The notes under the pieces were generated by a model, which searched no databases, was not told where the DNA came from, and was given only the letters and a program-made list of their open reading frames with translations. Shown here piece by piece: positions 22 to 23,548 of a stretch of DNA of 64,000 bases (positions are counted from its first letter, which is position 1; each line of letters starts with the position of its first letter). This DNA comes from an uncultured Chloroflexia bacterium. GTDB taxonomy: Bacteria > Chloroflexota > Limnocylindria > QHBO01. The stretch lies in assembly GCA_963805645.1 (NCBI GenBank), contig CAWDVA010000006.1, positions 192,078-256,077 on the forward strand, written 5' to 3'. A program made the translations under genes and the position numbers.

Positions 22-1098
22 GTGGCGGCTCGCATGCCGGAGGGTCGTCTCCGCGGCCCGGAGGAAGCGCGCGCGGTCGTGCGCCGGGCGAACGAGCGGT
101 TCCGTCGCCGCCGGGCACGAGGCCGTATGCCGATGCGTCCCGCCTGGCTGCCCATCGACCTGGAGACACGACAGGTGACCGGCGCCGACATCGCGTCGGC
201 CGCGGAGCGGGACCTGGGTCGCCTGCCGCCCCGCTTCGTGCGGGGCCTGACCGGGCTGCTCGATCCCGAGGAGCGCATCCTCGCCACCGTGGAGCGGCCA
301 CCCGAAGCCGGAGGCGGGCTCCTGGCCTGGCGCCGACAGCGTGACCGCCGCGCGGCGCTGCTCATGCTCACCGACCGGCAGCTCCTCTGGCTGGTGGACC
401 ACGTCGCGCCCAGCCGGTACCTCCTGGACTGGGGCGTGGATGCCCAGCTCCTGCCGATCGAGCGCCTCCGGGACCTCCGCCTGCGATTCGGGGCGGAGGC
501 CGGCAGCGCACCCACCGGTCTCCTGGTCAGGACCGATGCCGGCGAATCCGCGTTCCCGTTGCCGGCCGACCTCGAGCCGGAGGCGCGGGCCCTGGGCGAG
601 GTCCTGGCGCGGTTCCTCCCCCGGGAGGGGGTGGGGGCGGTCCGCCGCCGCTACCCGGTGGAGGCGATCCCCTTCGACCCCGAGCCTGCCCAGCGCTTCG
701 GGCAGGGTGACGAGGCTGTCGGACGGGTCGCCGGCCTTGCCGCGTCGGCCGCGGCCACGCCCCTCGCCGCGTTCTATGCCCCGCGCCGCGAGCGCGTGAA
801 GCAATCGGTTGCCGTGGTCGTCACGGAGCGCGAGATCCTCGCGGACGTGGCCGGCCGCGGCCGGCCAGCCGGGGACGGCACCGTGGTGCGCGTCCCGCTC
901 GAGACGCTTCGGCTGGTGAGCCTGGCGCTCTCGCCACTCATGGGACGCGTGGAGCTGCACGCGGGAGGCACGCCGCTGCGCTTCAGCTACCCGTCGCCGC
1001 TATCCGAGCCCGCCACCGCCTTCGTCCGCACCTGCCGGCGAGCCTGGGCCAACGTCGCCACCGCACCGGGGCCGGGCATTGCGGACTTCAGCGGATGA
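22..1098 (+). CDS. hypothetical protein (possibly 5'-partial; no in-frame stop between window start and the GTG at 22)
   Basis: Long ORF with protein-like composition in the six-frame track. No recognisable domain. The reading frame is open back to nt 1. Confidence 0.4.
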   Translation: MAARMPEGRLRGPEEARAVVRRANERFRRRRARGRMPMRPAWLPIDLETRQVTGADIASAAERDLGRLPPRFVRGLTGLLDPEERILATVERPPEAGGGLLAWRRQRDRRAALLMLTDRQLLWLVDHVAPSRYLLDWGVDAQLLPIERLRDLRLRFGAEAGSAPTGLLVRTDAGESAFPLPADLEPEARALGEVLARFLPREGVGAVRRRYPVEAIPFDPEPAQRFGQGDEAVGRVAGLAASAAATPLAAFYAPRRERVKQSVAVVVTEREILADVAGRGRPAGDGTVVRVPLETLRLVSLALSPLMGRVELHAGGTPLRFSYPSPLSEPATAFVRTCRRAWANVATAPGPGIADFSG

Positions 1099-12280: not shown

Positions 12281-12343
12281 GGCTCAGTCGGTCCTCGTGC
12301 TGCAATGGGAGATCAGCATACGGCCGCCCGCCATACTGGCGCC

Positions 12344-13399
12344 ATGCAGGCGACGCCGCTTCTCGAGCGCTACCGCCACCTCCTCGCGCACCCAGACGAC
12401 GAGCCGTTCCCGCTCACCCTGGGCGAGGGAGGCACCCCGCTGATCCGTGCCCGCCGGCTGGGCGAGGCGCTGGGCCTGGATCGCCTGTACCTGAAGTTCG
12501 AGGGAACGAATCCGACCGGGAGCTTCAAGGACCGCGGCATGGTGCTGGCCGTGACCCGGGCGGTGGCGCGCGGCGCACGAGCCGTCGTCTGCGCGTCGAC
12601 CGGGAACACGGCCGCCTCCGCCGCGGCCTACGCGGCCGCGGCGGGGATCCCCGCCTTCGTCCTCCTCCCCGCCGGCAAGGTCGCCCGCGGCAAGCTTGCC
12701 CAGGCGCTGGTGGCAGGGGCGCGGCTGGTGATGATCGACGGGAACTTCGACCAAGCGCTCGAGGCGGTCCGCCGCCTGGGCGAGGAGGGGGTGGCGGCCG
12801 TCGTCAACTCCATCAACCCCGACCGCCTCGAGGGACAGCAGACCGGCGCCTGGGAGATCTGCGACGCCCTGGATGCGGCGCCCGACGCACTGGCCCTCCC
12901 CGTCGGCAATGCGGGGAACATCAGCGCCTACTGGCGCGGCTTCAGCCGGTACGCGGCCGAGGGCCGGACCGCGGGCCGTCCGCGGATGCTTGGATTCCAG
13001 GCGGAGGGCGCCGCGCCGATCGTGCGCGGGGCACCGGTCGCACAGCCGGAGACGGTGGCGACCGCGATCCGCATCGGCAATCCCGCCTCCTGGCAGCTGG
13101 CGGTCGCCGCACGCGACGAGTCCGGCGGGACCATCGCGGCGGTGAGCGACGAGGAGATCGTGGCGGCGCAGCACGACGTCGTGCGCCTGGAGGGGGTCTT
13201 CTGCGAACCCGCCTCGGCGGCGGGCGTGGCCGGGGTGCGGCAGCTGGTCGCGGACGGGCGCCTCCATCGGTCCGACGCGGTCGTCTGCGTGCTCACCGGC
13301 CACGGCCTCAAGGACCCCGACGCGGTGCAGGCGGAGGAGGGCAGCCTGACGCCGGTGCCGGCCGAGCTCGGCGCCATCCGCAAGGCGATGGGCCTCTAG
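12344..13399 (+). CDS. thrC: threonine synthase
   Basis: TGSFKDRG PLP-lysine motif at 352 aa. ATG at 12344 is the plausible start. The track ORF extends spuriously upstream. Confidence 0.85.
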   Translation: MQATPLLERYRHLLAHPDDEPFPLTLGEGGTPLIRARRLGEALGLDRLYLKFEGTNPTGSFKDRGMVLAVTRAVARGARAVVCASTGNTAASAAAYAAAAGIPAFVLLPAGKVARGKLAQALVAGARLVMIDGNFDQALEAVRRLGEEGVAAVVNSINPDRLEGQQTGAWEICDALDAAPDALALPVGNAGNISAYWRGFSRYAAEGRTAGRPRMLGFQAEGAAPIVRGAPVAQPETVATAIRIGNPASWQLAVAARDESGGTIAAVSDEEIVAAQHDVVRLEGVFCEPASAAGVAGVRQLVADGRLHRSDAVVCVLTGHGLKDPDAVQAEEGSLTPVPAELGAIRKAMGL

Positions 13400-13414: not shown

Positions 13415-15055
13415 TCAGTCGGCCGGAGAAAGGCGACCGGCGATCACGGCCTCCGCGGCGGCCCCGCTCTGCGGGTAGCCGGTCACCACCTCGAGGAACG
13501 GCACCCGCTCGAGCGCCAGGAGCTCCGTCTCGGCGACGGCCACCACAGATGCGGTGCGCGGCACGTCGCGCAGCAGCGCGATCTCCCCGAACCCCTCGCC
13601 CGGACCGAGCTCGCGGACCGGCTCCCCGTCCACGAGGACGCGGACCCGTCCCTCCGCGACGACGTAGTACCGATCCCCCGGCTCGCCCTGGCGGATGATC
13701 TCGGCGCCGGTGTCTGCATGAGCGGGGACCAGGTTGGCTGCCAGCCGCTCGAGCACGAGCGCGGAGAGCGGCGCGAAGATCGGGATGTCGCGGAGCAGGG
13801 TCAGCTCCACGAGGTGGACCTCCGAGGCCATGTCGATCTCCCGGAGGGAGCGGGCCGCGAGGAGGACGGCAACCGGCAGCAGCAGACCGGTGAGCACGAA
13901 GGCGCCATGGGGTCCGAGCGCCGCCACCACGAGGGAGGCTCCCATGGAGCCGGCCGCCAGCGACGCCATGCTGACCCCCTCGAGGACCCCGAAGATCCGG
14001 GCCAGCATGGCGTGCGGTGCGACGCGCTGCAGCAGGGTGCGCCCGGCGACGTCCATCACGCTGCGGCCGGCGCCTGCGACCATCAGGAGCGAGACCGCAA
14101 GGAGCAGGCTCGACGAAACGCCCAGGAAGGCGAGCGGCAGTCCGTAGACCATGGCGCCCAGGCCGTACGGGACGGCGAGCCTCGGACGGCCGATGAGCGT
14201 CACGGTGAGCGCCACTCCCAGCAGTCCGCCCGCGCCGATCACCGCGCCGAGGTAGCCGACGGCGGGATCGTCGAGGGAGAGCAATTCGAGCGCGAGGACC
14301 ACCACGAGGACGTCCATGGCTCCCCACACCACGTCGGAAAGGGCGAAGAGTCCGGCGACCGGGCGGAGCCGTCCGGGCCCGAGCAACGCCCCGAACCCGT
14401 CCACCAGGGCGGCGACGGGACGGCCACGCACGCCGGCCCCCGCGCCGGCGGGCACGGCAGTCCTTCCCACGGCCAGGGCGACCAGCGCGCCGGAGGCGAG
14501 GACGACGGCACCGAAGACGGCGAAGACCGGCGCGATGCCGCCGATGGCCAGGCCCAGCCCGGCGAGACCGGGGCCGACGAGGAGCGACCCGTTCTCGATG
14601 ATCCCGCTCGTGACGTTCGCGGCGGTGAGCTCGGCCGGGGTATCGGCGAGTGCCGGGATGAGGGCCGCCTGGAGCGGACGGGTCAGGGTCATCGCGGCGT
14701 TCGCCAGCGCCGCGAGGGCGTACACCGGAACGACCGGCAGGCCGGCGCCGATGGCGGCCGCGAGCGCGATGATCGACGTGCCCTGGAGCACGTACGCGAG
14801 CACGAGCATCCGGTCCCGGCGGTATCGGTCCCCCAGCACGGCGGCAACCGGCGCCAGGACGGCCGCCGGCGCGAGCTGGACGAGCACGGCGATGCCGACT
14901 CCGGTGGCCCCGCCCACGTTGAAGGCGTAGACCAGCATCCCGATCCACTCGACCCACTCGGCGAGGGCGAATCCCAGGTACGCCGCCTCGATCGCGGCGA
15001 TGCGCCGATTCCGCAGCACCGCGAGGAGCACGCTGAGCGACGCACCGAGCGCCAT
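13415..15055 (-). CDS. MFS transporter fused to C-terminal CAP-type cyclic-nucleotide-binding domain
   Basis: The N-terminal about 400 aa are highly hydrophobic with 12 TM segments. The C-terminus carries GEGFGEIALL...RTASVVA, the cNMP-binding cassette. Confidence 0.8.
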   Translation of the reverse strand: MALGASLSVLLAVLRNRRIAAIEAAYLGFALAEWVEWIGMLVYAFNVGGATGVGIAVLVQLAPAAVLAPVAAVLGDRYRRDRMLVLAYVLQGTSIIALAAAIGAGLPVVPVYALAALANAAMTLTRPLQAALIPALADTPAELTAANVTSGIIENGSLLVGPGLAGLGLAIGGIAPVFAVFGAVVLASGALVALAVGRTAVPAGAGAGVRGRPVAALVDGFGALLGPGRLRPVAGLFALSDVVWGAMDVLVVVLALELLSLDDPAVGYLGAVIGAGGLLGVALTVTLIGRPRLAVPYGLGAMVYGLPLAFLGVSSSLLLAVSLLMVAGAGRSVMDVAGRTLLQRVAPHAMLARIFGVLEGVSMASLAAGSMGASLVVAALGPHGAFVLTGLLLPVAVLLAARSLREIDMASEVHLVELTLLRDIPIFAPLSALVLERLAANLVPAHADTGAEIIRQGEPGDRYYVVAEGRVRVLVDGEPVRELGPGEGFGEIALLRDVPRTASVVAVAETELLALERVPFLEVVTGYPQSGAAAEAVIAGRLSPAD

Positions 15056-15059
15056 GGGC

Positions 15060-16187
15060 TCAGCTCCGTCCGTGTGCGGCGAGGACTTCGATCAGCCGAT
15101 CGTGCGGGAGGGCGTGAGCGGTGATCCCGTCCCTCCCGGTCATGGTGTGGGCGGCGAGCAGCGCGTTGACGATGGCCTCCTCCGTGGCCTCGATGGCCGC
15201 CCAGAAGAGCGGCCCCAGGCGGTCGTCGCGCACGGCCGAGACGTCGTAGGTCGGGCCACTCCCGGGCGCCGCGGTATCCACCGAGGCGTTGCCGGTGGCG
15301 AAGGCGATCACCAGGTCCCCGCTCGAAGGCTCCCCGGCGCCGCCCGCCCGACCGATGCCCAGCGCCGGACGCTGGGCGAGGCGAGTGCACTGGTGGGAAA
15401 GGAGCGGCGCGTCGGTGGCAACCACCACGATGATGGACCCTGCGCCCGGTGGGGCCGATGAGCCGGGCAGGGGCACCACCTCGGGGCCGATCGCCTCGCC
15501 GACCGGCACGCCGGCGACGCTCAGGCGCGAGCGCCGGCCGTAGTTGGCCTGGACCAGGACGCCCACCGTGTAGCCGCCATCGGCCACCGGAATGACGCGC
15601 GACGCGGTGCCGATGCCACCCTTGAAGCCGTGGCAGATCATCCCGGTGCCGCCGCCCACGTTTCCCTCGGGCACGCGGCCGGGCGCGGCCGCCGCCCAGG
15701 CCTCCTCGAGGTGAGCCGCGGTGACGTGGAACCCGTCGATGTCGTTCAGGACGCCGTCCCAGGTCTCGCCCACCACCGGAAGCGACCAGAGCCGTGCGTC
15801 CGCGCCCCGCTCCCGTCGCTCGAGGGCGATGAGCGCATCCCGCACCGTGCCGACCGAATGCGTGTTCGTCAGCGCAACCGGTGACGTCAGCAGGCCTGCC
15901 TCGCGAACCCACTCCAGCCCGGTGAGCTCCCCGTTGCCGTTGAGCCGATGGCATCCGGCGAAGGCGGGCCGTGGCCAAGGTTCTCCGGGTGGCACCACGA
16001 CCGTGACCCCGGTTCGGACCGGACCGGCGCCGACCCGGAGCGGTCCGTCGCCGCGCTCGATGGTGGCGTGCCCGACCCGGACGCCGGCGACGTCGGTGAT
16101 GGCGTTGGCCGGACCGGGGTCGAGCTGGCCGATGCGAACGCCGAGATCGCGCGCCCGGGCGGGCGGGTCCCGGTCAGTCGATGCCAT
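15060..16187 (-). CDS. DmpA/S58-family self-processing L-aminopeptidase-like protein
   Basis: N-terminal GxLxPGPANAITDVAGVRVGH signature and internal GGGTG. Confidence 0.75.
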   Translation of the reverse strand: MASTDRDPPARARDLGVRIGQLDPGPANAITDVAGVRVGHATIERGDGPLRVGAGPVRTGVTVVVPPGEPWPRPAFAGCHRLNGNGELTGLEWVREAGLLTSPVALTNTHSVGTVRDALIALERRERGADARLWSLPVVGETWDGVLNDIDGFHVTAAHLEEAWAAAAPGRVPEGNVGGGTGMICHGFKGGIGTASRVIPVADGGYTVGVLVQANYGRRSRLSVAGVPVGEAIGPEVVPLPGSSAPPGAGSIIVVVATDAPLLSHQCTRLAQRPALGIGRAGGAGEPSSGDLVIAFATGNASVDTAAPGSGPTYDVSAVRDDRLGPLFWAAIEATEEAIVNALLAAHTMTGRDGITAHALPHDRLIEVLAAHGRS

Positions 16188-16635
16188 CGTCGCCGGCGCG
16201 GTTCGTCACCGCGACGCCGGAACCGACGATCAGCACGCTGAATGTCAGCGTGGGCGCGTCCGGCGGCAGGTCGTCCTGTCCCTGGAGCTCGATCGCGAGG
16301 CCCTGGGTCAGGCCGCGACGCACGACCTCCACGCGGCAGCCGGCGGGGAGTCGGATCGCCACGCCGGACATGAGGGTGGTGACCTCCAGGCGGGCGCCCC
16401 CGGGGGCGAGCTGCACCCCGCTCAGGTCCAGGTCGGCGCCCGCGAACCAGGTCGCAAACGTTCCGCCGCGGAACGCGGAGGCGCGGCTGCGGAGGGCGAG
16501 GCTGTCGGCAATGACCACCAGGGCCAGCTCGTCGCTCGTCTCGTCCCCGTGGGAGGGGATCAGGGCCCGCGCCGCCAGGGCCGAGCCGATCAGACCGGTG
16601 AAGATGCCCAGGGCGAAGAGGAGAATCCGGCGCAT
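16174..16635 (-). CDS. small membrane-anchored protein (N-terminal TM, beta-rich C-domain; LiaF-like?)
   Basis: MRRILLFALGIFTGLIGSALAA is a transmembrane anchor. The gene overlaps the downstream start by 14 nt. It sits between a REC gene and a peptidase gene. Confidence 0.5.
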   Translation of the reverse strand: MRRILLFALGIFTGLIGSALAARALIPSHGDETSDELALVVIADSLALRSRASAFRGGTFATWFAGADLDLSGVQLAPGGARLEVTTLMSGVAIRLPAGCRVEVVRRGLTQGLAIELQGQDDLPPDAPTLTFSVLIVGSGVAVTNRAGDDGID

Positions 16636-16639
16636 GGCG

Positions 16640-17038
16640 TCATGCTAGGGCCTTGCACCCGCACGCGGCCAGTGCCGCTGCCACGAACTCCTCCGGTGCC
16701 GACGCCTTTGGCAGGTAGCCGTCCGCGCTGGCCAGCAGGGCGGGGCGCTCGAGCGCATCGGACCAGCCCATCAGGATCACGCTGGCGCCCGGGGCCAGGA
16801 CACGCGCGGCGCCGATCAGGGCCTCGCCGGCATCGATCTCGGGGAGGCGCGGGTCCACGAGCACAAGCGACGGTTGCAGCTCCTCCACGACGGCCAGCGC
16901 CCGGGGAACGTCGCCCGCGGTGACGACGACCGGAACGCCGGCCAGGGCGAGCAGGTCGGCGAGGGACTGTCGAACCCGACGGTCGGCGTCAACGACGACG
17001 ATCCGCAGATCCTGGACGGGGTCTCCTTGATGGGGCAC
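16640..17038 (-). CDS. stand-alone response-regulator receiver (CheY-like) protein
   Basis: IVVVDAD...LVLVDPRLPE...YLPK show the acidic pocket, phospho-Asp and conserved Lys. There is no output domain. Confidence 0.7.
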   Translation of the reverse strand: MPHQGDPVQDLRIVVVDADRRVRQSLADLLALAGVPVVVTAGDVPRALAVVEELQPSLVLVDPRLPEIDAGEALIGAARVLAPGASVILMGWSDALERPALLASADGYLPKASAPEEFVAAALAACGCKALA

Positions 17039-17100
17039 GTGCCCATTCTTCGCCTGGACGCTCGCGCGCGCGTCGGCCGAGTAGCGGTGGCGGCGCTACG

Positions 17101-20100
17101 TCATTCGGCCGAGGACCCGGCCGAGGGCGCCGGCTCGGTCTCGTCAGCGGACTCGGCGGGGATGCGCCAGGTCACGCTCACCGCGGTGCCGTGTCCGGGC
17201 CGGCTGGTGACCGCGAACTCCGCCCCGATCCGCTCCGCCCGCTGGCGCATGCCGACCAGTCCCAGGTGGCCACGCGGCGTGTTGGCGGGGTCGAAGCCGA
17301 TGCCGTCATCGGTCACCGACAGGCGGATCTCGCCGCCGATGCGGGCCAGCAGGATCCGCGCCGACGAGGCGTTCGCGTGCTTGACGACGTTGTGGAGGGC
17401 TTCCTGCCCGATGCGATAGAGGGTCTCCTCCGCCTCGGAGGGCAGGCGCTCGGGGAGCCCCGTGTCGGCCTCCACGGTGACGGAGAGCCCGGTCCTGCCC
17501 TGCACCGCGGCGGCGTGGGTGCGCAGGGCCTGCTCCAGCCCGTCCTGCTCCAGGCTCTTCGGCCGGAGCTCGAAGATGAGCGTGCGCATCTCGGCCAGCG
17601 CGTCCTTCTGGAGGTCCCGCAGCTCCGCCAGCTTCCCGCGGGCGGCGCCCGGGTCCTGGTCCAGCAGCAGCTCGAGCGAGCGCATGGTGAGACCCATGCT
17701 GAAGAGCGCCTGGGTGACGCTGTCATGCAGCTCGCGCGCGAGGTTGCCGCGCTCCTGGGACGCTGCGATCTCCGCCGCCTGGGCGCGCAGGTCCACTTCG
17801 AGGCGCTCGCGGACGCTGATGTCTCGGACCGCGCCGTGCGCGCCGACGACCTTGCCGTCGACGATTTCCGCGATCCCCGTCGTCTCGGCGGGGATGGGAT
17901 GGCCGTCGCGATGCCGCAGATGGAAGCGGATCATGAGGTCCGGCTCGGTGTTGTCCACCATCCGCTGCCACTCCTCGTTCACGCGGTTCCCGCTGTCGGG
18001 GTGGACCAGGATGCGGAAGTGCTTGCCCACCAGCTCCTCGGCCTTCCAGCCGGAGAGGCGCTCGATGGTCTCGGAGAAGTACGTCAGCGTCCCGTCGGCG
18101 CGCGCGGACCAGATCGTGTCCGGCGAGTTCTCAACCAGGTGCCGGTAGCGGCGCTCGCTGCTCTCGACCTGTGCCCACAGCCGCGCGTTGCTGACCGCCA
18201 CCGCGGCCTGGTTGGCCAGGGTTCCCAAAAGCTCCGCGTCGTCCGCGTCCCACGCGTCGGGGCGCTGCGCGTCCATGAGCATGGCGCCCAGCCAGCCGTG
18301 CTCCCCGATCAGCGGCGCCGCCAGCACGGAATGGATGCCCTGGTCCCTCACCCAGGCGTCGGCTTCCGGCGAGTGCCTGAACCCCGGGTCGTTCAGGTAG
18401 TCCCCGGTGACGACCACGCGACCCTCGATCAGGGCCCTTCCGGCGATGCCCTGGTCCGGCTCGTCGAGGTCGGGCGAATCCGGGGGCGGCGCATCGGTCG
18501 GGCGACCGAACGTGTGGGCCAGCCGCAACCCCGGGCCGGGCTCGGTGACGAGGTCCATCTCGCCGCCATCGGCCTTGAGCAGTCGGGCCGCCTCGTCCAC
18601 CGTGCGCTGGAGGATGACCGCCGGATCGCGCATGGCCGTCAGCTGCCGGGCGATCTCCGACAGCGTCTGCTGCGCGTCGACCCGGCGTGCCAGCTCATCG
18701 GTCTGCCGGCGAAGGTCGTTCTCCAGCGTGACCCGCTCGCTGATGTCGCGGGTAGACCCGTGCACGCCCACGAACGCGCCGTCGCGCTCGATCCCGATGG
18801 CGCGCGTCTCGACGGGGACCACGCCACCGCCCTTGCGCATCAGCCCGAAGTCGACGCGTCGCTCGGTCGAAGGGTCCGAGACGATCGCCGCCCACTCCGC
18901 GCCGATCGCGTCGAGCGACTCGGGAGCGATGATGCTCATGAACGGCCTGCCGACCAGCTTGTCCGGCTCCCAGCCCGCGATGGCGGCGATGGCGTCGGAG
19001 ACGAAGGTGAAGGCGCCGTCGGCGTCGATCTCGTAGATGATGTCCGGCGCCTGCTCCACCAGGAACCGATAGCGGCGCTCCGACTCGTGGATCTGCTCCA
19101 CCAGGGTCGCGTTCGACAGGGCGATGGCACCCTGGTCTGCGAGGCGCTGGAGAAGGTCCAGCTGCTCCGGGTCGATCGAGCACGGCTTGCGGTACGAGAC
19201 CGCCAGGGTGCCGAGAATCTCGCCGCCGGGCGCGCGAAGCGGCGCGACCGCCATGCCGCGCAGGCCCATCCGCTCCGCGGTGTGCTGGTCGTCGGCCTCG
19301 TGGGGGATGCGCGGGTCGACCATGTAGTCCTCGGTCCACACCGCCCTGCCCAGCGACGCCGCGAGACCGTTCATCCCGCCGGCCACCGGGAAGGCCTGCG
19401 ACGCCAGCCAGCGCCGCGTGCGGGCGTCCGTCCCGCCAGCGATGACCCGTGGCCGCAGGAACGCGCCGGAGCCGTCGGGCACGGTCAGGTGCGCGCCGTC
19501 GGAGGCGAGGAGGCGATGCGCGGCGTCCACCACCTCCTGCAGAACCTCGGCCGGGTGACGCAGGGCGGTGATCCGGGCCGCGATCTCGCCAAGCGTGCGC
19601 TGGGCCTCGACCCGCCGCGCCAGCTCGTCCGCGCGCCGCCGCAGGTCCTCCTGCAGCCGCTCGTTGGCAAGCGTCACGGCGGCGTGGTTGGCGAGCGCCC
19701 TCAGGAGCCCGAGCTGCGCCGGATCGAAGGTGTGCGCCCGTCCGATGAAGACTCCCAGCGCCCCGAGGGACTCCCCGTCGGCGACGAGCGGCGCAACGGC
19801 CATGGCCCGCATCCCGGCGGTCTCCACGATCTGGTCCGCCACGTCGGAATGGGTGAATCCCGCGTCGTTGGGGTAGTCCTCGGTGGTGACCAGCTCCGCG
19901 CGGGCGAACGCGGTGCCGAACATGCCGACGCCCACAGGGAGAGTCAGCCCGTGGATCAGGCGACGGGCGGTGCGGTTGCGGATCCCCGCATCCCGCGCGA
20001 ACCGCAGCACGTTCGCATCCGCGTCGTACAGGTAGATCATCGCGCCGTCCGCCTGGAGCAGGCGCGCAGCTTCCTCGGCGGCGCCCTTCAGCACCGCGGA

Positions 20101-20151
20101 GACGCTCGCTGCGTGATCGGTTGGTCTGAAGCGGCGGCTCGGCTCGCCCAT
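17101..20151 (-). CDS. cytoplasmic multi-sensor histidine kinase: GAF-GAF-PAS-GAF-PAS-HisKA_3-HATPase_c
   Basis: 1016 aa with no TM segment. A C-terminal HDSVTQALFSMGL H-box (NarX/LiaS type) and an ATPase region with GLVGMRQRAERIGAEF. GAF/PAS spacing is seen around the ERRYRFLVE and ERRYRHLVE PAS linkers. Confidence 0.85.
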   Translation of the reverse strand: MGEPSRRFRPTDHAASVSAVLKGAAEEAARLLQADGAMIYLYDADANVLRFARDAGIRNRTARRLIHGLTLPVGVGMFGTAFARAELVTTEDYPNDAGFTHSDVADQIVETAGMRAMAVAPLVADGESLGALGVFIGRAHTFDPAQLGLLRALANHAAVTLANERLQEDLRRRADELARRVEAQRTLGEIAARITALRHPAEVLQEVVDAAHRLLASDGAHLTVPDGSGAFLRPRVIAGGTDARTRRWLASQAFPVAGGMNGLAASLGRAVWTEDYMVDPRIPHEADDQHTAERMGLRGMAVAPLRAPGGEILGTLAVSYRKPCSIDPEQLDLLQRLADQGAIALSNATLVEQIHESERRYRFLVEQAPDIIYEIDADGAFTFVSDAIAAIAGWEPDKLVGRPFMSIIAPESLDAIGAEWAAIVSDPSTERRVDFGLMRKGGGVVPVETRAIGIERDGAFVGVHGSTRDISERVTLENDLRRQTDELARRVDAQQTLSEIARQLTAMRDPAVILQRTVDEAARLLKADGGEMDLVTEPGPGLRLAHTFGRPTDAPPPDSPDLDEPDQGIAGRALIEGRVVVTGDYLNDPGFRHSPEADAWVRDQGIHSVLAAPLIGEHGWLGAMLMDAQRPDAWDADDAELLGTLANQAAVAVSNARLWAQVESSERRYRHLVENSPDTIWSARADGTLTYFSETIERLSGWKAEELVGKHFRILVHPDSGNRVNEEWQRMVDNTEPDLMIRFHLRHRDGHPIPAETTGIAEIVDGKVVGAHGAVRDISVRERLEVDLRAQAAEIAASQERGNLARELHDSVTQALFSMGLTMRSLELLLDQDPGAARGKLAELRDLQKDALAEMRTLIFELRPKSLEQDGLEQALRTHAAAVQGRTGLSVTVEADTGLPERLPSEAEETLYRIGQEALHNVVKHANASSARILLARIGGEIRLSVTDDGIGFDPANTPRGHLGLVGMRQRAERIGAEFAVTSRPGHGTAVSVTWRIPAESADETEPAPSAGSSAE

Positions 20152-20162
20152 GGGTGCTCGCC

Positions 20163-21413
20163 TCAGGTCGCCATTCCGTGCTCGACGGCCCAGAGTGCCG
20201 CCTGGGTGCGGCTGGCCAGCGCCAGCTTCCCGAGGATGTTGCTCACGTGGGTCCGGGCCGTTCGTTCGGTGATCCCCAGGGCGTGGGCGATCTCCTTGTT
20301 GCTCGAGCCCCTGGCCAGGTGCGCGAGAACTTCCTTCTCCCGGTCGGTGAGCGGCTCAACCGGCTGCTCCGTCTTGCGGGCGCGCAGGCGCTGCGCCAGC
20401 ATCCGCGCCACGGCCGCGTCCAGGTGCACCTCGCCGGCGTGGGCCGCGCGGATCGCGTTGGCGACCTCGTCCGCATCGGCGTCCTTGAGCAGGTACCCCG
20501 ACGCGCCGGCTTCCAGCGCCGATGTCACCTTCTGCTCCTCGATGAAGCTCGTGACGGCCACGATCTCGACGCCCGGCCGCGACTCCTTGATCTTGCCGAT
20601 GGCGGTGATGCCGTCCATCTTCGGCATGAGCAGGTCCATCAGGATGACGTCCGGCTGCAGCCGGTCCGCCAGCGCGACCGCCTCCTCGCCGTCCTCCGCC
20701 TCCCCCACCACCTCGATGTCGCGGAGCAGCTCCAGGAACCCCTTCAACCCCCGCCGGACGACCGCGTGGTCGTCGACCAGCATGACCCGGATCGGGCCTT
20801 CGTCGCTCACGTCCTCCATCTCCCTCGGCGCGTACGCGGTGCTCATGGGCAGGTCGGGCGCGGGAAGCACCGCATGTGCAGTATGCAGGAGCTGGTAGAC
20901 GTGCACCGGTTCGGTGATGTCGCGAAGCCGGTGGGTGCCCAGGTCCCGTGGCCGGAGCTCGTCCGGCAGCCGGCCGGCGGCCACGGCCAGCACGGCCTCG
21001 CTGATGAGCGTCTCGCCCCCATGCGCCAGGCTGAGGATGCGCGCGGCGCGGAAGAGCGGCGGGCCAAAGAACCGGTCGCCACGACGCTGCGCATCGCCCG
21101 TGTCGAGCGCGGCGCGCACGCGCAGGTGCCCCACATCCCCCCAATCGGCCTCGAGCAGGTCGCGCGCGAGCTCGATGGCGGCCATCACGGCTTCCGCGCC
21201 ATCGTCGAAGGCGGCGTAGGCCGCATCACCGACACGCTCGAAGACTCGGCCGCCGTGGCGTTCCACGGCTTCGGCGACGTACGCCTGGTGGCGCGCGAGG
21301 ACCTCGGCTGCCCGCTCCGGGAAGCGCTCCGAGATGCGCGTGCTTCCTTCGACATCGGTGAACAGGAAGGTGATGGGCGTTGGGCGTTGGGCGGTTTCCA
21401 CGGCAGGGAGCAT
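20163..21413 (-). CDS. response regulator with N-terminal class III nucleotidyl-cyclase homology domain, receiver and LuxR/NarL HTH (CHD-REC-HTH)
   Basis: FLFTDVEGST, ERVGDAAYAAF and GPPLFRAARIL...ITEPVHVYQL make up the CHD. IRVMLVDDHAVVRRGL and ILMDLLMP form the REC. LTDREKEVL...LGITERTARTHVSNILGKL is the LuxR HTH. ATG at 21413 (MLPAVE). The track ORF carries an implausible Arg-rich 146-aa extension. Confidence 0.75.
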   Translation of the reverse strand: MLPAVETAQRPTPITFLFTDVEGSTRISERFPERAAEVLARHQAYVAEAVERHGGRVFERVGDAAYAAFDDGAEAVMAAIELARDLLEADWGDVGHLRVRAALDTGDAQRRGDRFFGPPLFRAARILSLAHGGETLISEAVLAVAAGRLPDELRPRDLGTHRLRDITEPVHVYQLLHTAHAVLPAPDLPMSTAYAPREMEDVSDEGPIRVMLVDDHAVVRRGLKGFLELLRDIEVVGEAEDGEEAVALADRLQPDVILMDLLMPKMDGITAIGKIKESRPGVEIVAVTSFIEEQKVTSALEAGASGYLLKDADADEVANAIRAAHAGEVHLDAAVARMLAQRLRARKTEQPVEPLTDREKEVLAHLARGSSNKEIAHALGITERTARTHVSNILGKLALASRTQAALWAVEHGMAT

Positions 21414-21566
21414 ACCGTCGGACCCCCGGGGCCTGTCCCCGGCCGAATGACGTAGACGGGCATGGGCGAAAGAGCCGGGCCGCGTTCGGGACCCATGGCC
21501 GACGCGCCGGAGACCACGGCAGGCGACCATGGCGCCATCAACAGCACCGAGACGGAGGACGAACCG

Positions 21567-21770
21567 ATGTACGCGACAGCACGCATTGCCGACGCGCTCA
21601 TCACCCCGCCGATTCCCTCGCCACAGCCCCGGTACGTCGCCCGGGCCGACGACGAGGAGCCGCCGGTCCGCTCGACCACGAGCGTCCGGCAGGTCCGGCG
21701 GACGATCGAGGGCGCGGCGGCGGCCGCGTGGCTCGCCTTCGTGCCGAGGATGCGCAACAACCCGCGCTGA
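21567..21770 (+). CDS. small hypothetical protein (67 aa)
   Basis: A GGAGGA Shine-Dalgarno sequence lies 7 nt before ATG 21567. The ORF sits in the divergent intergenic region between the signalling operon and tag. Weak support. Confidence 0.25.
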   Translation: MYATARIADALITPPIPSPQPRYVARADDEEPPVRSTTSVRQVRRTIEGAAAAAWLAFVPRMRNNPR

Positions 21771-21992
21771 CGACCGCGCCAGGCGCCGGCTGACGGCCGC
21801 GCCGGGGGCGCTCCGCGACACGAACGCAGCCGAGACGAATACCCGACACACCCGAACGGCGGGCCCGGCCGAGGGCCCGCCCGTCCCGTCGTCCCGGAAG
21901 GGCCTGGCCCCGCGCCTTCCCGGAATTTCGACCGGCTATCCTCGTGACTCGTGAGCACCGCCGCACCCATAACCGCACCGCCCGAGAGCCAC

Positions 21993-22574
21993 ATGCGCTG
22001 CGCCTGGGCCCCGTTGGACGACCCGGCATACCTCGCCTACCACGACACCGAGTGGGGCGTGCCTCTGCACGACGAGCGGCGGCTCTTCGAGATGCTCGTC
22101 CTGGAGGGCGCGCAGGCGGGGCTTTCGTGGGCGACCATCCTGCACCGCCGCGAGGGCTACCGACGCGCGTTCGCCGGCTTCGACCCGGAGTCAGTGGCGC
22201 GCTTCGGACCCGATGACGAGGCGCGGCTGCTCGCCGACGCTGGCATCGTCCGCAACCGGGCAAAGGTCCGCGCCGCCATCGGCAACGCGCGCGCCTGGCT
22301 CGCCCTTCGCGAGGCCGGCATCGATCCGGTGTCCCACCTGTGGTCGTTCGTCGGCGGCGCGCCGAGGGTGAACGACTGGCGGACCGTGGCCGAGATGCCT
22401 GCCGAGACCGATGCCTCCCGGGCGATGTCGCGAGACCTGCGATCGCACGGGTTCGCCTTCGCGGGCCCGACCATCTGCTACGCGTTCATGCAGGCGACGG
22501 GGATGGTCAACGACCACGTGGTGGGCTGCTTCCGGCATCGGCAGCTCTCCACGCCCGGGCGGACGGACGGCTGA
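21993..22574 (+). CDS. tag: DNA-3-methyladenine glycosylase I
   Basis: MRCAWAPLDDPAYLAYHDTEWGVP...ICYAFMQATGMVNDHVVGCF aligns with E. coli Tag, including the zinc-binding Cys/His residues. Confidence 0.85.
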   Translation: MRCAWAPLDDPAYLAYHDTEWGVPLHDERRLFEMLVLEGAQAGLSWATILHRREGYRRAFAGFDPESVARFGPDDEARLLADAGIVRNRAKVRAAIGNARAWLALREAGIDPVSHLWSFVGGAPRVNDWRTVAEMPAETDASRAMSRDLRSHGFAFAGPTICYAFMQATGMVNDHVVGCFRHRQLSTPGRTDG

Positions 22575-22618
22575 GCGGACCGACACCCGGGGACGACCCG
22601 CGGATACACTCGCCGCAC

Positions 22619-23548
22619 ATGACCGCCCTGACCCGCATCGCCAGCGTGGAGGTCCCCGCCAGCTCCGCGAACCTGGGGAGTGGCTTCGATGCGTTTGCCG
22701 CCGCGCTCTCGCTCAAGCTGCGCGGGGAGCTGCACCGGGGCGACGAGCCGGGGATCCTGCTCACCGCTCGCGGCGAGGGCGCCCCGCCCGATGACGCCGA
22801 CCCCGAGGAGAACCTGGTGATCCGCGCGTTCCGGGCGGGGCTGCGCGCCGCCGGCGGTGCTCCGGGCGGGGCCGGGTCGTGGCGGATCGAGGTCGCCTCC
22901 ATGATTCCGGCTGCCCGCGGCCTGGGGAGCAGCGCGGCGGCCATCGTCGCGGGCCTGCTGCTGGGAACGGCGGCCGGTCGGCGATCGCCGCACCCGGACG
23001 AGATCCTCGCCCTGGCCGCGGACCTGGAGGGACACCCGGACAACGTGGCCGCCACCCTCTACGGCGGCATCACCCTGGCGGTGACCAACCGGAACGCGCC
23101 GGCCACCCTGCGACGGTTCCGCCCGCCCGAGCGCTGGATCCCGGTCGTCTTCATCCCGGTGACGGAGAGCCGGACCCACGAGATGCGGGCCGTCCTGCCC
23201 AATGTCGTGAGCCTGGCCGATGCCACGGCCCAGGCGGCCCACGCCGCCCTCCTCGCCACCGCGATCGCCACGGCCGACGCCGCCCTGCTGCGGAACGCGA
23301 TGGACGATCGGCTCCATCAGCCGTACCGGCTCGCCCGGCTGGAGGAGAGCAGGCGCCTGATCGAGGTCGCCTACGAGCACGGGGCGTCCGGCGCCTGCCT
23401 CTCCGGCGCCGGCCCCAGCGTCCTGGCCATCTGCGACTCTCCCGCGATGGCGCACGGCGTGGAAAAGGCGTTCAACGCGGCCGGCGTGCGCGGGATGGCG
23501 ACCCGGCTGCGTTTCGACGAGATCGGCGCGCGCATCACCACTGCCTGA
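22619..23548 (+). CDS. thrB: homoserine kinase (GHMP family)
   Basis: PASSANLGSGFD N-terminal motif and the GHMP ATP loop PAARGLGSSAAA. ATG at 22619. Confidence 0.85.
   Translation: MTALTRIASVEVPASSANLGSGFDAFAAALSLKLRGELHRGDEPGILLTARGEGAPPDDADPEENLVIRAFRAGLRAAGGAPGGAGSWRIEVASMIPAARGLGSSAAAIVAGLLLGTAAGRRSPHPDEILALAADLEGHPDNVAATLYGGITLAVTNRNAPATLRRFRPPERWIPVVFIPVTESRTHEMRAVLPNVVSLADATAQAAHAALLATAIATADAALLRNAMDDRLHQPYRLARLEESRRLIEVAYEHGASGACLSGAGPSVLAICDSPAMAHGVEKAFNAAGVRGMATRLRFDEIGARITTA

Follow-up and report, generated by a model that had tools for sequence, protein, structure and literature searches.

Six tightly packed genes on the minus strand (g1 to g6, Table 1) lie in the analyzed window, a stretch of 64 kb (64,000 nt), and contain both its sole class III cyclase homology domain and its sole cyclic nucleotide-binding (CNB) domain. 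The question raised by this locus is whether the six genes form a single unit. According to the original prediction they constitute a self-contained circuit. In such a circuit the kinase g2 would activate the regulator g1, g1 would produce a cyclic nucleotide, and this messenger would gate the transporter g6 and perhaps feed back on the GAF domains of the kinase. The joint presence of the two domains in one operon speaks for such a circuit.

Layout of the cluster

Re-inspection of the open reading frame calls returned the predicted arrangement, with consecutive spacings of 11, 62, 4, −14 and 4 nt on one strand, and the operon-like packing was therefore upheld. The 4-nt gaps and the 14-nt overlap are compatible with an integrated unit. 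Both flanking genes are encoded on the opposite strand: thrC reaches to position 13399 and leaves 15 nt to the g6 stop codon, and tag starts at position 21951. GC3 values are 0.85–0.93 in g1, g2, g4, g5 and g6 (g3 did not pass the filter applied). The nearest syntenic relatives are, by their titles, metagenome-assembled genomes (MAGs) of Chloroflexota/Candidatus Limnocylindria, which corrects the assumed affiliation with Actinomycetota. The locus is inherited vertically between thrB and thrC. All predicted domain assignments were recovered, that of g4 as LiaF-like only via its relatives and not by a direct profile match, and the gene order indeed corresponds to no characterized system.

Table 1. 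Features of the six-gene cluster and the adjacent intergenic region.
Feature	Position (nt)	Residues	Strand	Description
g1	20163..21413		−	416-aa response regulator (Pfam, NCBIfam, Ma1120 match, AF2 model)
g1 cyclase homology domain	20880–21383	~11–178	−	class III, N-terminal
g1 linker		179–203		disordered, AF2 pLDDT <50
g1 receiver domain		208–326
g1 HTH		354–411		LuxR/GerE type
g2	17101..20151		−	1016-aa soluble sensor histidine kinase (Pfam)
g3	16640..17038		−	132-aa single-domain receiver, GTG start; Response_reg 3.6e-11
g4	16174..16635		−	153-aa membrane-anchored protein, LiaF-like_C (PF09922) superfamily through relatives
g5	15060..16187		−	375-aa S58 (DmpA/BapA-type) self-processing aminopeptidase
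g6	13415..15055		−	546-aa MFS permease with C-terminal cNMP-binding domain
g6 CNB domain	13418–13810	~416–540	−
Conserved non-coding block	21732..21825		−	94 nt, g1/tag divergent intergenic region

A regulator with an N-terminal cyclase homology domain

Protein g1 is a NarL-type regulator fused to a cyclase homology domain, as predicted. Pfam reports Response_reg (1.2e-28) and GerE (8e-19) and, marginally, Guanylate_cyc (22.1 bits, cut-off 21.9); the closest solved relative of the cyclase domain is the Mycobacterium avium adenylyl cyclase Ma1120 (PDB 4wp8 and related structures; phmmer E=1.3e-17). This match and 511 homologues, many of them titled class 3 adenylate cyclase, make the cyclase assignment solid. 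An alignment of homologues backs the start at 21413. The AF2 model comprises three folded domains joined by a low-pLDDT linker.

No description of the cyclase-receiver-LuxR HTH architecture was found in the literature searched. In response-regulator censuses, regulators with cyclase output have the order receiver-cyclase. As in these, phosphorylation of the g1 receiver would be expected to govern a class III cyclase that acts as a dimer, but the order is reversed, with the cyclase preceding the receiver and a second output, the LuxR HTH, following it. The Mycobacterium tuberculosis proteins Rv0386, Rv1358 and Rv2488c likewise carry a class III cyclase N-terminal to a LuxR-type HTH, but in them a STAND ATPase/TPR module takes the place of the phospho-receiver of g1. 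Rv0386 shares with g1 non-canonical substrate-defining residues (PMC3466318). In an actinobacterial LuxR census, such cyclase-ATPase-LuxR regulators occur in Mycobacterium only. Many sequence neighbors of the g1 cyclase domain contain AAA_16 or NB-ARC domains, and these STAND-type neighbors mostly have the canonical Lys, Asp and Asn (K-D-N) at the three positions discussed below.

Active site of the cyclase domain

The active-site positions of g1 are D20, E59, D63, R114, F121, R125 and R164; E59, R114, F121 and R125 align with K101, D157, A164 and R168 of Ma1120. The domain retains the two metal aspartates and the transition-state arginine, and the canonical Lys, Asp and Asn are replaced by E59, R114 and F121, making this a non-canonical domain. 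Loss of these catalytic or specificity residues in the subtype with Glu and Arg or His could mean lost catalysis. The domain would then be a pseudo-enzyme serving in nucleotide binding or dimerization, and the operon would have no internal source of cyclic nucleotide. The marginal Pfam score is in line with this, as is the dispensability of the domain, which is missing from the regulators in the related loci L012 and L096 (receiver-HTH part 79% identical to g1). It also diverges more quickly than the remainder of g1 (51–54% versus 77% identity to the regulators of L009 and L010).

A comparison of 225 relatives argues in the opposite direction. Lys occupies the first position in 100 of them, combined with Asp in 99 and Asn in 96 cases; Glu is found in 105, and in these the second position is Arg or His with a single exception, and the third is Tyr, Phe or His in 99. 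The three positions co-vary as a set, from K-D-N to E-(R/H)-(F/Y/H), which is not the picture of random decay. Both metal aspartates and the arginine are present in 100 of the 105 Glu-type relatives, and E59 and R114 never vary among the regulators of the clade, which share about 50% identity. Relatives of 330 aa, whose genes adjoin that of a kinase with 70% identity to g2, consist of cyclase and receiver without an HTH, which leaves the cyclase domain as their only possible output. Moreover, Ma1120, with conserved metal aspartates and arginine, is an active cyclase despite having A164 instead of the canonical Asn (PMC4215837). We therefore regard a pseudo-enzyme as unlikely.

In Ma1120, K101 and D157 specify ATP, where g1 has E59 and R114. 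The guanylate cyclase pattern has Glu at the first position and includes His among the second-position residues (PMC4215837). Judged by its residues, the E-(R/H)-(F/Y/H) signature is guanylate-cyclase-like, and for this reason the product of the g1 domain may be other than cAMP. The engineered guanylate cyclase-like mutant of Ma1120 differs in carrying K to E, D to G and A to Y exchanges and not the E/R pair of g1. Most likely, the g1 domain is a catalytically active nucleotide cyclase whose preferred base is not adenine. We infer guanine as the best fit, since Glu is a hydrogen-bond acceptor and Arg a donor, the reverse of Lys and Asp with adenine.

Kinase and single-domain receiver

The domain order of g2 is GAF-GAF-PAS-GAF-PAS-HisKA_3-HATPase_c, and no hydrophobic segment was found in its sequence. 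The three GAF domains had been listed among the cNMP-associated folds of the cluster. They are present, but the NKFDE motif of cNMP-binding GAFs is absent from them, which speaks against their part in an integrated circuit; GAF domains are generic sensor folds. Over 982 aa, g2 is 70% identical to the kinase encoded 3' of the cyclase-receiver genes in L001–L006. These genes, together with those in L177 and L178, belong to the same Glu subtype as g1 and have no CNB neighbor, a further point against a fixed cyclase-receptor circuit.

Protein g3 consists of a receiver only. It retains the acceptor Asp and the Lys, but its acidic pair is D-A, not D-D. Orthologues are located 3' of the kinase in L009, L010, L012, L087, L091 and L096.

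NCBIfam matches of g2 include LiaS (99 bits). As in the LiaFSR three-component system of Firmicutes, a HisKA_3 kinase and a NarL-type regulator occur alongside a protein of the LiaF C-terminal domain family. The cluster differs in that g2 is soluble without a TM segment, and in that g4 has one TM helix, lacks a direct profile match and is present without a two-component system in L089 and L097.

Membrane protein, peptidase and transporter

No direct family match was found for g4 in Pfam or NCBIfam; 35 of 40 of its relatives (n=468 at E<=1e-3) match LiaF-like_C (PF09922). The AF2 model (pLDDT 93.5) has one N-terminal TM helix (residues 3–26) followed by a beta-rich domain, and the fold gave no significant match to solved structures. 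The assignment of g5 as a self-processing peptidase was borne out by Peptidase_S58 (6.8e-115) and by its best solved relatives, the D-aminopeptidase 5tzb (2.7e-112) and DmpA (1b65). The profile match shared with DmpA and BapA is full-length, the self-cleavage Ser region is conserved, and the nucleophile region G-S...ATDAPL aligns with PDB 5tzb.

Protein g6 matches MFS_1 and cNMP_binding in Pfam, and TIGR00900 with 87 bits, under the family cut-off. Its TM region extends to about residue 405. Across 119 homologues the phosphate-binding cassette FGEIALL...PRTA does not vary, and the best solved matches of the CNB domain are of the PKG/PKA type, so that the predicted permease with a CAP-type cNMP-binding domain stands. 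The M. tuberculosis proteins Rv3728 and Rv3239c have the same organization; we know of no characterized member of these permease-CNB fusions, nor of a description of an S58 peptidase paired with such a permease. The fusions have been listed as a class and as probable allosteric regulators (PMC10710835). The subfamily of g6 is a Chloroflexota expansion with >3000 matches, often paired with an S58 peptidase at this slot.

Cyclase genes are found near g6 paralogues in 9 of 80 metagenomic loci, and in L151 the cyclase gene overlaps the stop codon of the transporter gene. Ten cyclase matches in about 486 kb of flanking DNA compare with no extra ones in about 490 kb of control DNA, a rough control, given the differences in lineage and sampling. 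This enrichment favors an integrated circuit, but the cyclases adjoining the paralogues in L099, L124, L151 and L153 are of the canonical Lys/Asn type, unlike that of g1.

A cyclase together with an effector carrying a cNMP-binding domain on membrane helices is also the composition of a Pycsar-like anti-phage system, and PADLOC gave weak matches (g1 cyclase domain against PycC, 19 bits; g6 against the PycTIR/effector CNB region, ~42 bits). These reflect shared domain folds only: the cyclase sits inside a NarL-type regulator, the supposed "effector" is a complete MFS permease, with a TM region of ~400 residues, from a family of >3000 members, and the locus is vertically inherited. No mobile-element or defense-island context was seen around it. 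A defense function is effectively refuted.

Variable gene content at the same chromosomal position

We compared the slot at the same chromosomal position in related genomes (thrB-tag and thrC as borders). The slot itself is conserved, but its gene content is not. Only one close relative, L087, has the full set (76–92% identity for the six orthologues). L091 has five of the six genes, lacking the peptidase. These two loci favor an integrated unit, but every partial combination was seen as well. The peptidase and transporter genes are accompanied by g4 in L089/L090 and stand alone in L092 and L094; in these loci they directly adjoin tag (45–104 nt) without a two-component system. L097 (g4 and transporter) and L098 (transporter only) likewise have no gene of a two-component system on the stretch from tag to the transporter. 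Conversely, L009 and L010 contain the cyclase-bearing signaling trio with nothing downstream. The trio lacks the cyclase domain in L012, where it is accompanied by the peptidase, and in L096, where transporter and peptidase are present. The occurrence of the cyclase domain thus does not follow that of the CNB transporter. Most two-component loci (L009, L010, L012, L096) have no g4, which in L089 and L097 occurs without a two-component system.

These combinations contradict a self-contained six-gene circuit on one second messenger, which we now consider improbable. On this basis we divide the cluster into two separable modules, A (g1–g3) and B (g4–g6), probably on one transcript. The surrounding synteny is highly conserved, so adjacency says little for or against either reading. 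Since signaling and transporter/peptidase genes still occur together at down to 48% transporter identity (L096), the modules may instead derive from one ancestral unit that was degraded repeatedly.

A conserved element upstream of g1

The 94-nt block between g1 and tag contains a tandem direct repeat of GGCGCGGYCGTCAGC with 23-nt spacing. It is nearly invariant in L087 and L091, where the adjacent intergenic DNA diverges, and tandem GGCGCGGYCGTCAGC copies are present only in the window and these two loci. No Rfam family was found for the block and its RNA fold is not compelling (z = −1.9). The block is thus a candidate for an operator or a promoter element.

A proposed composite operon

With moderate confidence, we favor a composite operon in which modules A and B were brought together in the variable thrB-tag/thrC slot. 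Module A would be a cytoplasmic phosphorelay: the soluble kinase g2 would sense an intracellular ligand and phosphorylate g1 and g3, the latter possibly acting as a phosphate sink or branch. Phosphorylation would dimerize the g1 receiver and switch on LuxR-type DNA binding. Class III cyclases need a dimer, and by way of the flexible 25-residue linker the paired receivers should let two g1 cyclase domains pair as well. Module B would combine a LiaF-like membrane protein and a DmpA-type aminopeptidase with an MFS permease, whose transport would be gated by a cyclic nucleotide bound to the C-terminal CNB domain. In sister genomes without the two-component system, module B would have its own promoter; here the modules are joined at 4-nt spacing, so module A probably co-transcribes module B.

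Module A may also supply the ligand of module B, in which case the coupling would be lineage-specific and optional. Tight packing here and cyclases enriched near transporter paralogues make a local, facultative cyclase-receptor link possible. On the present comparison, the cluster is best described as a facultative assembly and not as a single fixed system.

Organization of the gene block

The six packed minus-strand genes (g1 to g6) were recovered with spacings of 11, 62, 4, -14 and 4 nt, which is exactly the layout of the original prediction. Third-position GC is high in these reading frames (g3 did not pass the GC3 filter), in a window with a G+C content of ~72%. Genes on the opposite strand bound the block on both sides. 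All syntenic relatives keep the same housekeeping frame, with thrC at one end and tag and thrB at the other, and the content in between differs, so that this slot behaves as a variable region. Rfam gave no match anywhere in the 64-kb window. An intrinsic terminator scan found no terminator and a sigma-70 promoter scan returned one promoter-like site, which is intragenic; either method may not apply to this phylum.

Features of the gene block and of its surroundings in the window
Feature	Positions	Strand	Remarks
thrC, threonine synthase	12341-13399	+	TIGR00260, 304 bits; convergent, end 15 nt from the g6 stop
g6, MFS permease with C-terminal cNMP-binding (CNB) domain	13415-15055	-	ORF
g5, S58 peptidase	15060-16187	-	ORF
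g4, LiaF-like membrane protein	16174-16635	-	ORF
g3, lone receiver	16640-17038	-	ORF
g2, GAF/PAS HisKA_3 kinase	17101-20151	-	ORF
g1, cyclase-receiver-LuxR regulator	20163-21413	-	ORF
94-nt conserved non-coding block	21732-21825	minus-strand orientation	two GGCGCGGYCGTCAGC copies 23 nt apart
tag (3-methyladenine glycosylase), then thrB (homoserine kinase, TIGR00191)	21951-23548	+	divergent; tag start 537 nt upstream of g1

The regulator g1 combines a cyclase domain with a receiver and a LuxR-type output

Pfam detected Response_reg (1.2e-28) and GerE (8e-19) in g1; the Guanylate_cyc match was marginal, with 22.1 bits against a cut-off of 21.9. Using phmmer, the N-terminal 206 residues were found to match the solved adenylyl cyclase Ma1120 from Mycobacterium avium (1.3e-17), and nine further solved class III cyclase sequences match the N-terminal part at E<=3e-4. 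The same 206 residues retrieve 511 homologues, many of which are labelled class 3 adenylate cyclase. Because Ma1120 and other solved cyclases match and so many homologues are found, the cyclase assignment is secure despite the marginal Pfam score. The AF2 model of g1 contains confident cyclase (11-178), receiver (208-326) and HTH (357-411) domains and a disordered linker (179-203), with a pLDDT of ~90 over residues 11-178 in this monomer prediction.

The alignment shows no variation at the receiver residues D214, D215, D260, T288 and K310, and g1 carries the acidic pair, acceptor Asp, Thr, Lys and GerE HTH of NarL/FixJ-type response regulators. Its score with the NarL model (192 bits) is below the equivalog cut-off of 250, which denotes membership in the family and not orthology to NarL. 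In the loci compared, either the cyclase domain or the HTH may be missing from regulators that are otherwise orthologous, with 77-95% identity over the receiver-HTH part. An N-terminal extension of g1 to 21851 was rejected, as conservation there is at the nucleotide level and the frame changes between genomes.

Response regulators with cyclase outputs normally carry the receiver domain first. In architecture, the mycobacterial cyclase-ATPase-LuxR proteins (Rv0386 and relatives) come closest to g1; they have no receiver domain. Each component of g1-g6 belongs to a known family; what is new in g1 is the cyclase-receiver-LuxR combination.

The cyclase active site is altered at three positions

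Key positions were fixed by the alignment to Ma1120 and by a mutational study of that enzyme (PMC4215837). g1 has both metal-binding aspartates (D20 and D63); across the regulator clade D63 does not vary and D20 hardly does. The first substrate-specifying residue, K101 in Ma1120, is E59 in g1, and the second, D157, is R114. The canonical Asn position (A164 in Ma1120) is occupied by F121, and the transition-state Arg (R168) corresponds to the invariant R125. Guanylyl cyclases have Glu instead of Lys and C, S, T, H, A or G at the second position, a list that includes His and lacks Arg (PMC4215837). The substrate pair of g1 fits neither the Lys/Asp pattern of adenylyl cyclases nor the full guanylyl pattern, since E59 matches the latter and R114 lies outside the listed residues; the His variant found at the second position in the same clade is among those listed for known guanylyl cyclases. 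In the transition-state Asn-Arg pair the Arg is retained and the Asn replaced by F121; Ma1120 likewise lacks the Asn and is active with Ala at this position (PMC4215837). E59, D63, R114 and R125 are invariant in the regulator clade at ~50% identity, and all g1 orthologues of the fetched loci have the E/R/F set.

We analyzed 225 close relatives of the cyclase domain, collected in two database searches. Lys-type sequences (100 of the 225) have Asp at the second position in 99 cases and Asn at the third in 96. In the 105 Glu-type sequences the second position is Arg (58), His (46) or Gln (1), the Asn position is Tyr, Phe or His in 99, and both metal aspartates as well as the Arg are kept in 100. 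The three positions co-vary almost perfectly while the metal aspartates and the Arg are retained, which points to an active site that is probably changed and not decaying. A Glu acceptor together with an Arg or His donor would present a hydrogen-bonding pattern complementary to N1-H/N2-H and O6 of guanine, and would thereby mirror the way Lys/Asp recognize adenine. We refer to these Glu-type domains as the E-(R/H)-(F/Y/H) or Glu subtype, which is new. Partner domains of the subtype are receiver, FHA and AAA_16/NB-ARC.

Cyclase-receiver proteins of the Glu subtype also make up a second group (308-312 aa, without HTH), seen in two independent assemblies (L177 8001-8927 and L178 8001-8939). The genes of these orphan regulators are set in pyrimidine-biosynthesis genes, flanked by pyrB/pyrC-like genes and by a phosphoribosyltransferase gene, and neither a kinase gene nor a CNB gene lies close by.

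A conserved block upstream of g1

The 94-nt block between g1 and tag is almost invariant in two relatives only, L087 and L091, and the neighbouring intergenic DNA diverges. The tandem GGCGCGGYCGTCAGC pair was found in only three genomes (the window, L087 and L091), the ones having the cyclase-bearing regulator and the transporter together, and the block is a candidate operator. It was not called as an RNA element (folding z = -1.9 and -1.1). A small ORF in the same intergenic region (21462-21770, +) was rejected, again with conservation at the nucleotide level and a frame that changes between genomes.

Kinase, receiver and LiaF-like protein

The g2 protein is a HisKA_3 sensor histidine kinase (HisKA_3 2.6e-16, HATPase_c 1.5e-12, ELHDSV H-box in the translation) with the Pfam domain order GAF-GAF-PAS-GAF-PAS-HisKA_3-HATPase_c. 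Since it contains no hydrophobic segment, it is assigned to the cytoplasm. The NKFDE motif of cNMP-binding GAF domains (PDE/CyaB type) is absent; g2 has no NK dipeptide and no F-x3-DE anywhere. The three GAF domains therefore do not count as cyclic-nucleotide elements here. The cyclase, GAF and CNB domain calls of the original prediction were all confirmed by Pfam, for the cyclase together with the phmmer matches to solved enzymes; of the three cNMP-associated folds it had counted, the (non-canonical) cyclase and the CNB domain remain and the GAF domains drop out. Kinase orthologues span a nearly two-fold length range (861 aa in L096, 970 aa in L091, 1016 aa in the window, 1249 aa in L012, ~1600-1650 aa in L009/L010), owing to differing numbers of tandem GAF (and PAS) domains; the C-terminal catalytic core is conserved.

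g3 consists of a receiver domain alone; among its orthologues the acceptor Asp and the Lys are conserved, with D-A replacing the acidic pair.

For g4 no direct profile match was obtained, and PF09922 (LiaF-like_C) gave none at E<=0.1. Its relatives number 468, and 35 of 40 tested match PF09922 (best 2.7e-08), so that the predicted LiaF-like nature of g4 is supported by transitivity through relatives and has no counterpart in a match to g4 itself. The g4 model (pLDDT 93.5) shows a single TM helix and a beta-rich domain, and a Foldseek search of the PDB with it gave no match below E=0.1. g1-g4 share with LiaFSR the theme of HisKA_3 kinase, NarL-type regulator and LiaF domain (putative in g4), and differ from it in kinase topology, g4 topology and conserved linkage: g4 has one TM segment in place of a multi-pass N-terminal membrane domain, and g2 has none, whereas LiaF is linked to a membrane-bound LiaS-type kinase. 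As to linkage, L089 and L097 have g4 but no two-component system, and g4 is missing from L009, L010, L012 and L096.

A predicted self-processing peptidase and a putative cNMP-receptor permease

g5 gives a full-length Peptidase_S58 match (6.8e-115, 384 bits against a cut-off of 23.9). Its closest solved relatives are the D-aminopeptidase 5tzb and DmpA, to which the nucleophile region was aligned; around the self-processing Ser, GAGS-IIVVVATDAPL in g5 stands against GMGS-IVVTIATDAPL in 5tzb. g5 has the sequence features of the S58 (DmpA/BapA) family and is predicted to be self-processing.

The C-terminal cNMP_binding match of g6 (Pfam, 9.5e-19) contains the phosphate-binding cassette FGEIALL...PRTA, whose residues are invariant, or present in 118 of 119, across 119 homologues with 48-100% identity. 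This cassette agrees with the CAP/PKA-type pattern G-E-x-A-L ... R-[ST]-A and makes g6 a putative cNMP receptor. The permease part passes MFS_1 (55 bits against 33) and remains below the DHA3/MFS_3 (EntS-like) subfamily model TIGR00900 (87 bits against 320), so g6 is an MFS member without subfamily assignment; PF05977 (MFS_3) is recorded for many g6 homologues. A transporter review lists MFS-CNB fusions as uncharacterised regulatory fusions (PMC10710835).

An S58 neighbour was found at none of the 78 non-syntenic transporter loci of the metagenomic set (L099-L176). The pairing of an S58 peptidase with an MFS-CNB permease is thus specific to this slot, and is new.

The six genes are not an obligate unit

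Loci were gathered via relatives of g1 and of g6, and the six proteins and the flanking genes were mapped by tblastn. The g1-based genome scan used patterns in the receiver domain, and most of its 80 loci are consequently unrelated Streptomyces NarL-type regulators; only ~10 were informative. Since the Streptomyces loci match the generic receiver-HTH part only, and the nearest full-length g1 relatives, the syntenic loci and the named g6 homologues come from Chloroflexota / Candidatus Limnocylindria MAGs, the Actinomycetota lineage proposed originally was discarded.

Gene content of related loci between tag and thrC
Locus	g6 identity	Genes found
L087 (closest relative)	85%	all six
L089/L090	70%	g4, peptidase, transporter, from 104 nt off tag; two-component genes missing
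L097	68%	g4, transporter
L091	67%	cyclase-bearing regulator, kinase, receiver, g4-like, transporter; peptidase missing
L092	59%	peptidase and transporter, nothing more
L098	56%	transporter alone
L094	51%	transporter then peptidase (inverted order), nothing more
L096	48%	225-aa regulator (cyclase domain missing), kinase, receiver, transporter, peptidase
L012		regulator (no cyclase domain), kinase, receiver, peptidase; g4 and transporter missing
L009, L010		cyclase-bearing regulator, unannotated opposite-strand ORF, 1600-aa multi-GAF kinase, receiver, then thrC

The flanking genes (thrB, tag, thrC, acyl-CoA ligase and 2-oxoglutarate dehydrogenase) are syntenic throughout. The complete set of six is conserved in the closest relative, and the other slot loci contain partial sets. 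The signalling trio g1-g3 is found without the g4/peptidase/transporter set and vice versa, and presence of the transporter is not tracked by presence of the cyclase domain. In an unrelated context (L001-L006), 330-aa cyclase-receiver proteins without HTH have as their neighbour a kinase that shares 70% identity with g2. The pattern at the slot fits two independent modules, and it also fits an ancestral larger cluster that was repeatedly eroded. In L096, where the transporter is only 48% identical, the trio co-occurs with transporter and peptidase, which speaks for some antiquity; the very high background synteny precludes a firm choice between the two. Under either reading g1-g6 is not an obligate unit. 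The proposed six-gene circuit is therefore supported in its domains and packing, and not in its unity, as the trio and the g4/peptidase/transporter set occur apart.

Several further features were seen at these loci. An opposite-strand ORF of 146-160 aa with high GC3 and no Pfam match lies between regulator and kinase in more distant relatives (L008 11652-12134, L009 11682-12164, L010 9082-9564, L096 4415-4855); the window, with 11 nt separating g1 from g2, does not have it. In L087 (3114-7954) the kinase is split over three called ORFs, and a frameshift affects the regulator HTH after residue ~375, reflecting either an error of the long-read MAG assembly or incipient pseudogenisation of the signalling module. 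L001-L006 contain a second, stand-alone cyclase gene (404 aa; e.g., L001 6754-7968, -), convergent to the kinase and near the 330-aa cyclase-receiver protein.

Cyclases near MFS-CNB transporters

With cyclase and CNB domain HMMs built for this analysis, exactly one cyclase domain and one CNB domain were detected in the 64-kb window, both within g1-g6. A cyclase gene is present in the flank of 9 of 80 metagenomic loci with transporter paralogues (40-68% identity), with 10 matches in ~486 kb; in ~490 kb of control Chloroflexota loci no additional cyclase was found. This suggests, with a crude control, that cyclases generally tend to be located near these MFS-CNB receptors. Those annotated by Pfam beside paralogues are cyclase-STAND-TPR proteins or hydrolase-cyclase fusions. 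Four paralogue-flanking cyclases aligned to g1 (L099, L124, L151 and L153) keep the canonical Lys and Asn and do not belong to the g1 subtype; that of L151 overlaps the transporter stop codon. The other Glu-subtype cyclase-receiver genes (L001-L006, L177 and L178) have no CNB neighbour.

MFS-CNB paralogues often have additional genes with CNB domains as neighbours. In L099 (15-1904) the CNB domain is fused to a PLP-dependent decarboxylase; in L133, L152, L156, L160 and L169 the transporter genes adjoin short reading frames that contain a CNB domain and measure ~140-150 codons from stop to stop. Dense clustering of cNMP-receptor genes in these Chloroflexota is suggested by this.

Proposed mechanism and significance

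PADLOC returned only weak, domain-level matches to the Pycsar anti-phage system (19 and ~42 bits), and this assignment was rejected because architectures and housekeeping context differ. Literature searches on cyclase-receiver-LuxR regulators, on the E/R substrate pair and on Limnocylindria cNMP signalling yielded nothing specific.

Going beyond the observed domain content, active-site residues, packing and modular presence and absence, we infer the following sequence of events. The soluble GAF/PAS kinase would sense a cytoplasmic ligand and phosphorylate g1 at D260, and g3 as well. Dimerisation of the g1 receiver would switch on LuxR-type DNA binding and, via the flexible linker, assemble the cyclase dimer, which would make not cAMP but another cyclic nucleotide, most likely cGMP. 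In this genome g4-g6 would be co-transcribed by read-through, the g6 permease would be gated allosterically through its CNB domain, and g5 may process or supply the transported peptide or amino-acid compound.

The broader proposal would be that the E-(R/H)-(F/Y/H) domains are guanylate (or other non-adenine NTP) cyclases of a clade that is mostly Chloroflexota and has gone unrecognised, many of them activated via a phosphorylated C-terminal receiver, and that the kinase here triggers both transcription and synthesis of a cGMP-like nucleotide that gates the adjoining MFS-CNB permease. We rate this combined proposal as improbable; if true, it would constitute a bacterial path from a two-component system via a cyclic nucleotide to a transporter, with Glu/Arg as a new substrate-recognition pair.

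Tight operon packing of thematically similar domains does not by itself demonstrate a dedicated circuit, and the locus owes its significance mainly to the cyclase subtype and to the regulator with its two outputs, and not to the six genes as a circuit. To our knowledge, MFS permeases with cNMP-binding domains are abundant and uncharacterised; this locus provides one of them with a candidate source of ligand and, in the S58 aminopeptidase, with a candidate metabolic partner. Signalling by cGMP or other non-cAMP cyclic mononucleotides is, as far as we know, sparsely documented in bacteria, and the base specificity of class III cyclases continues to be deduced from two residues. A three-position switch with the catalytic metal ligands retained predicts, in a clean and testable way, a new specificity class. 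With cyclase, receiver and LuxR domains in one protein, a single phosphorylation event would have two outputs, transcription and second-messenger synthesis.
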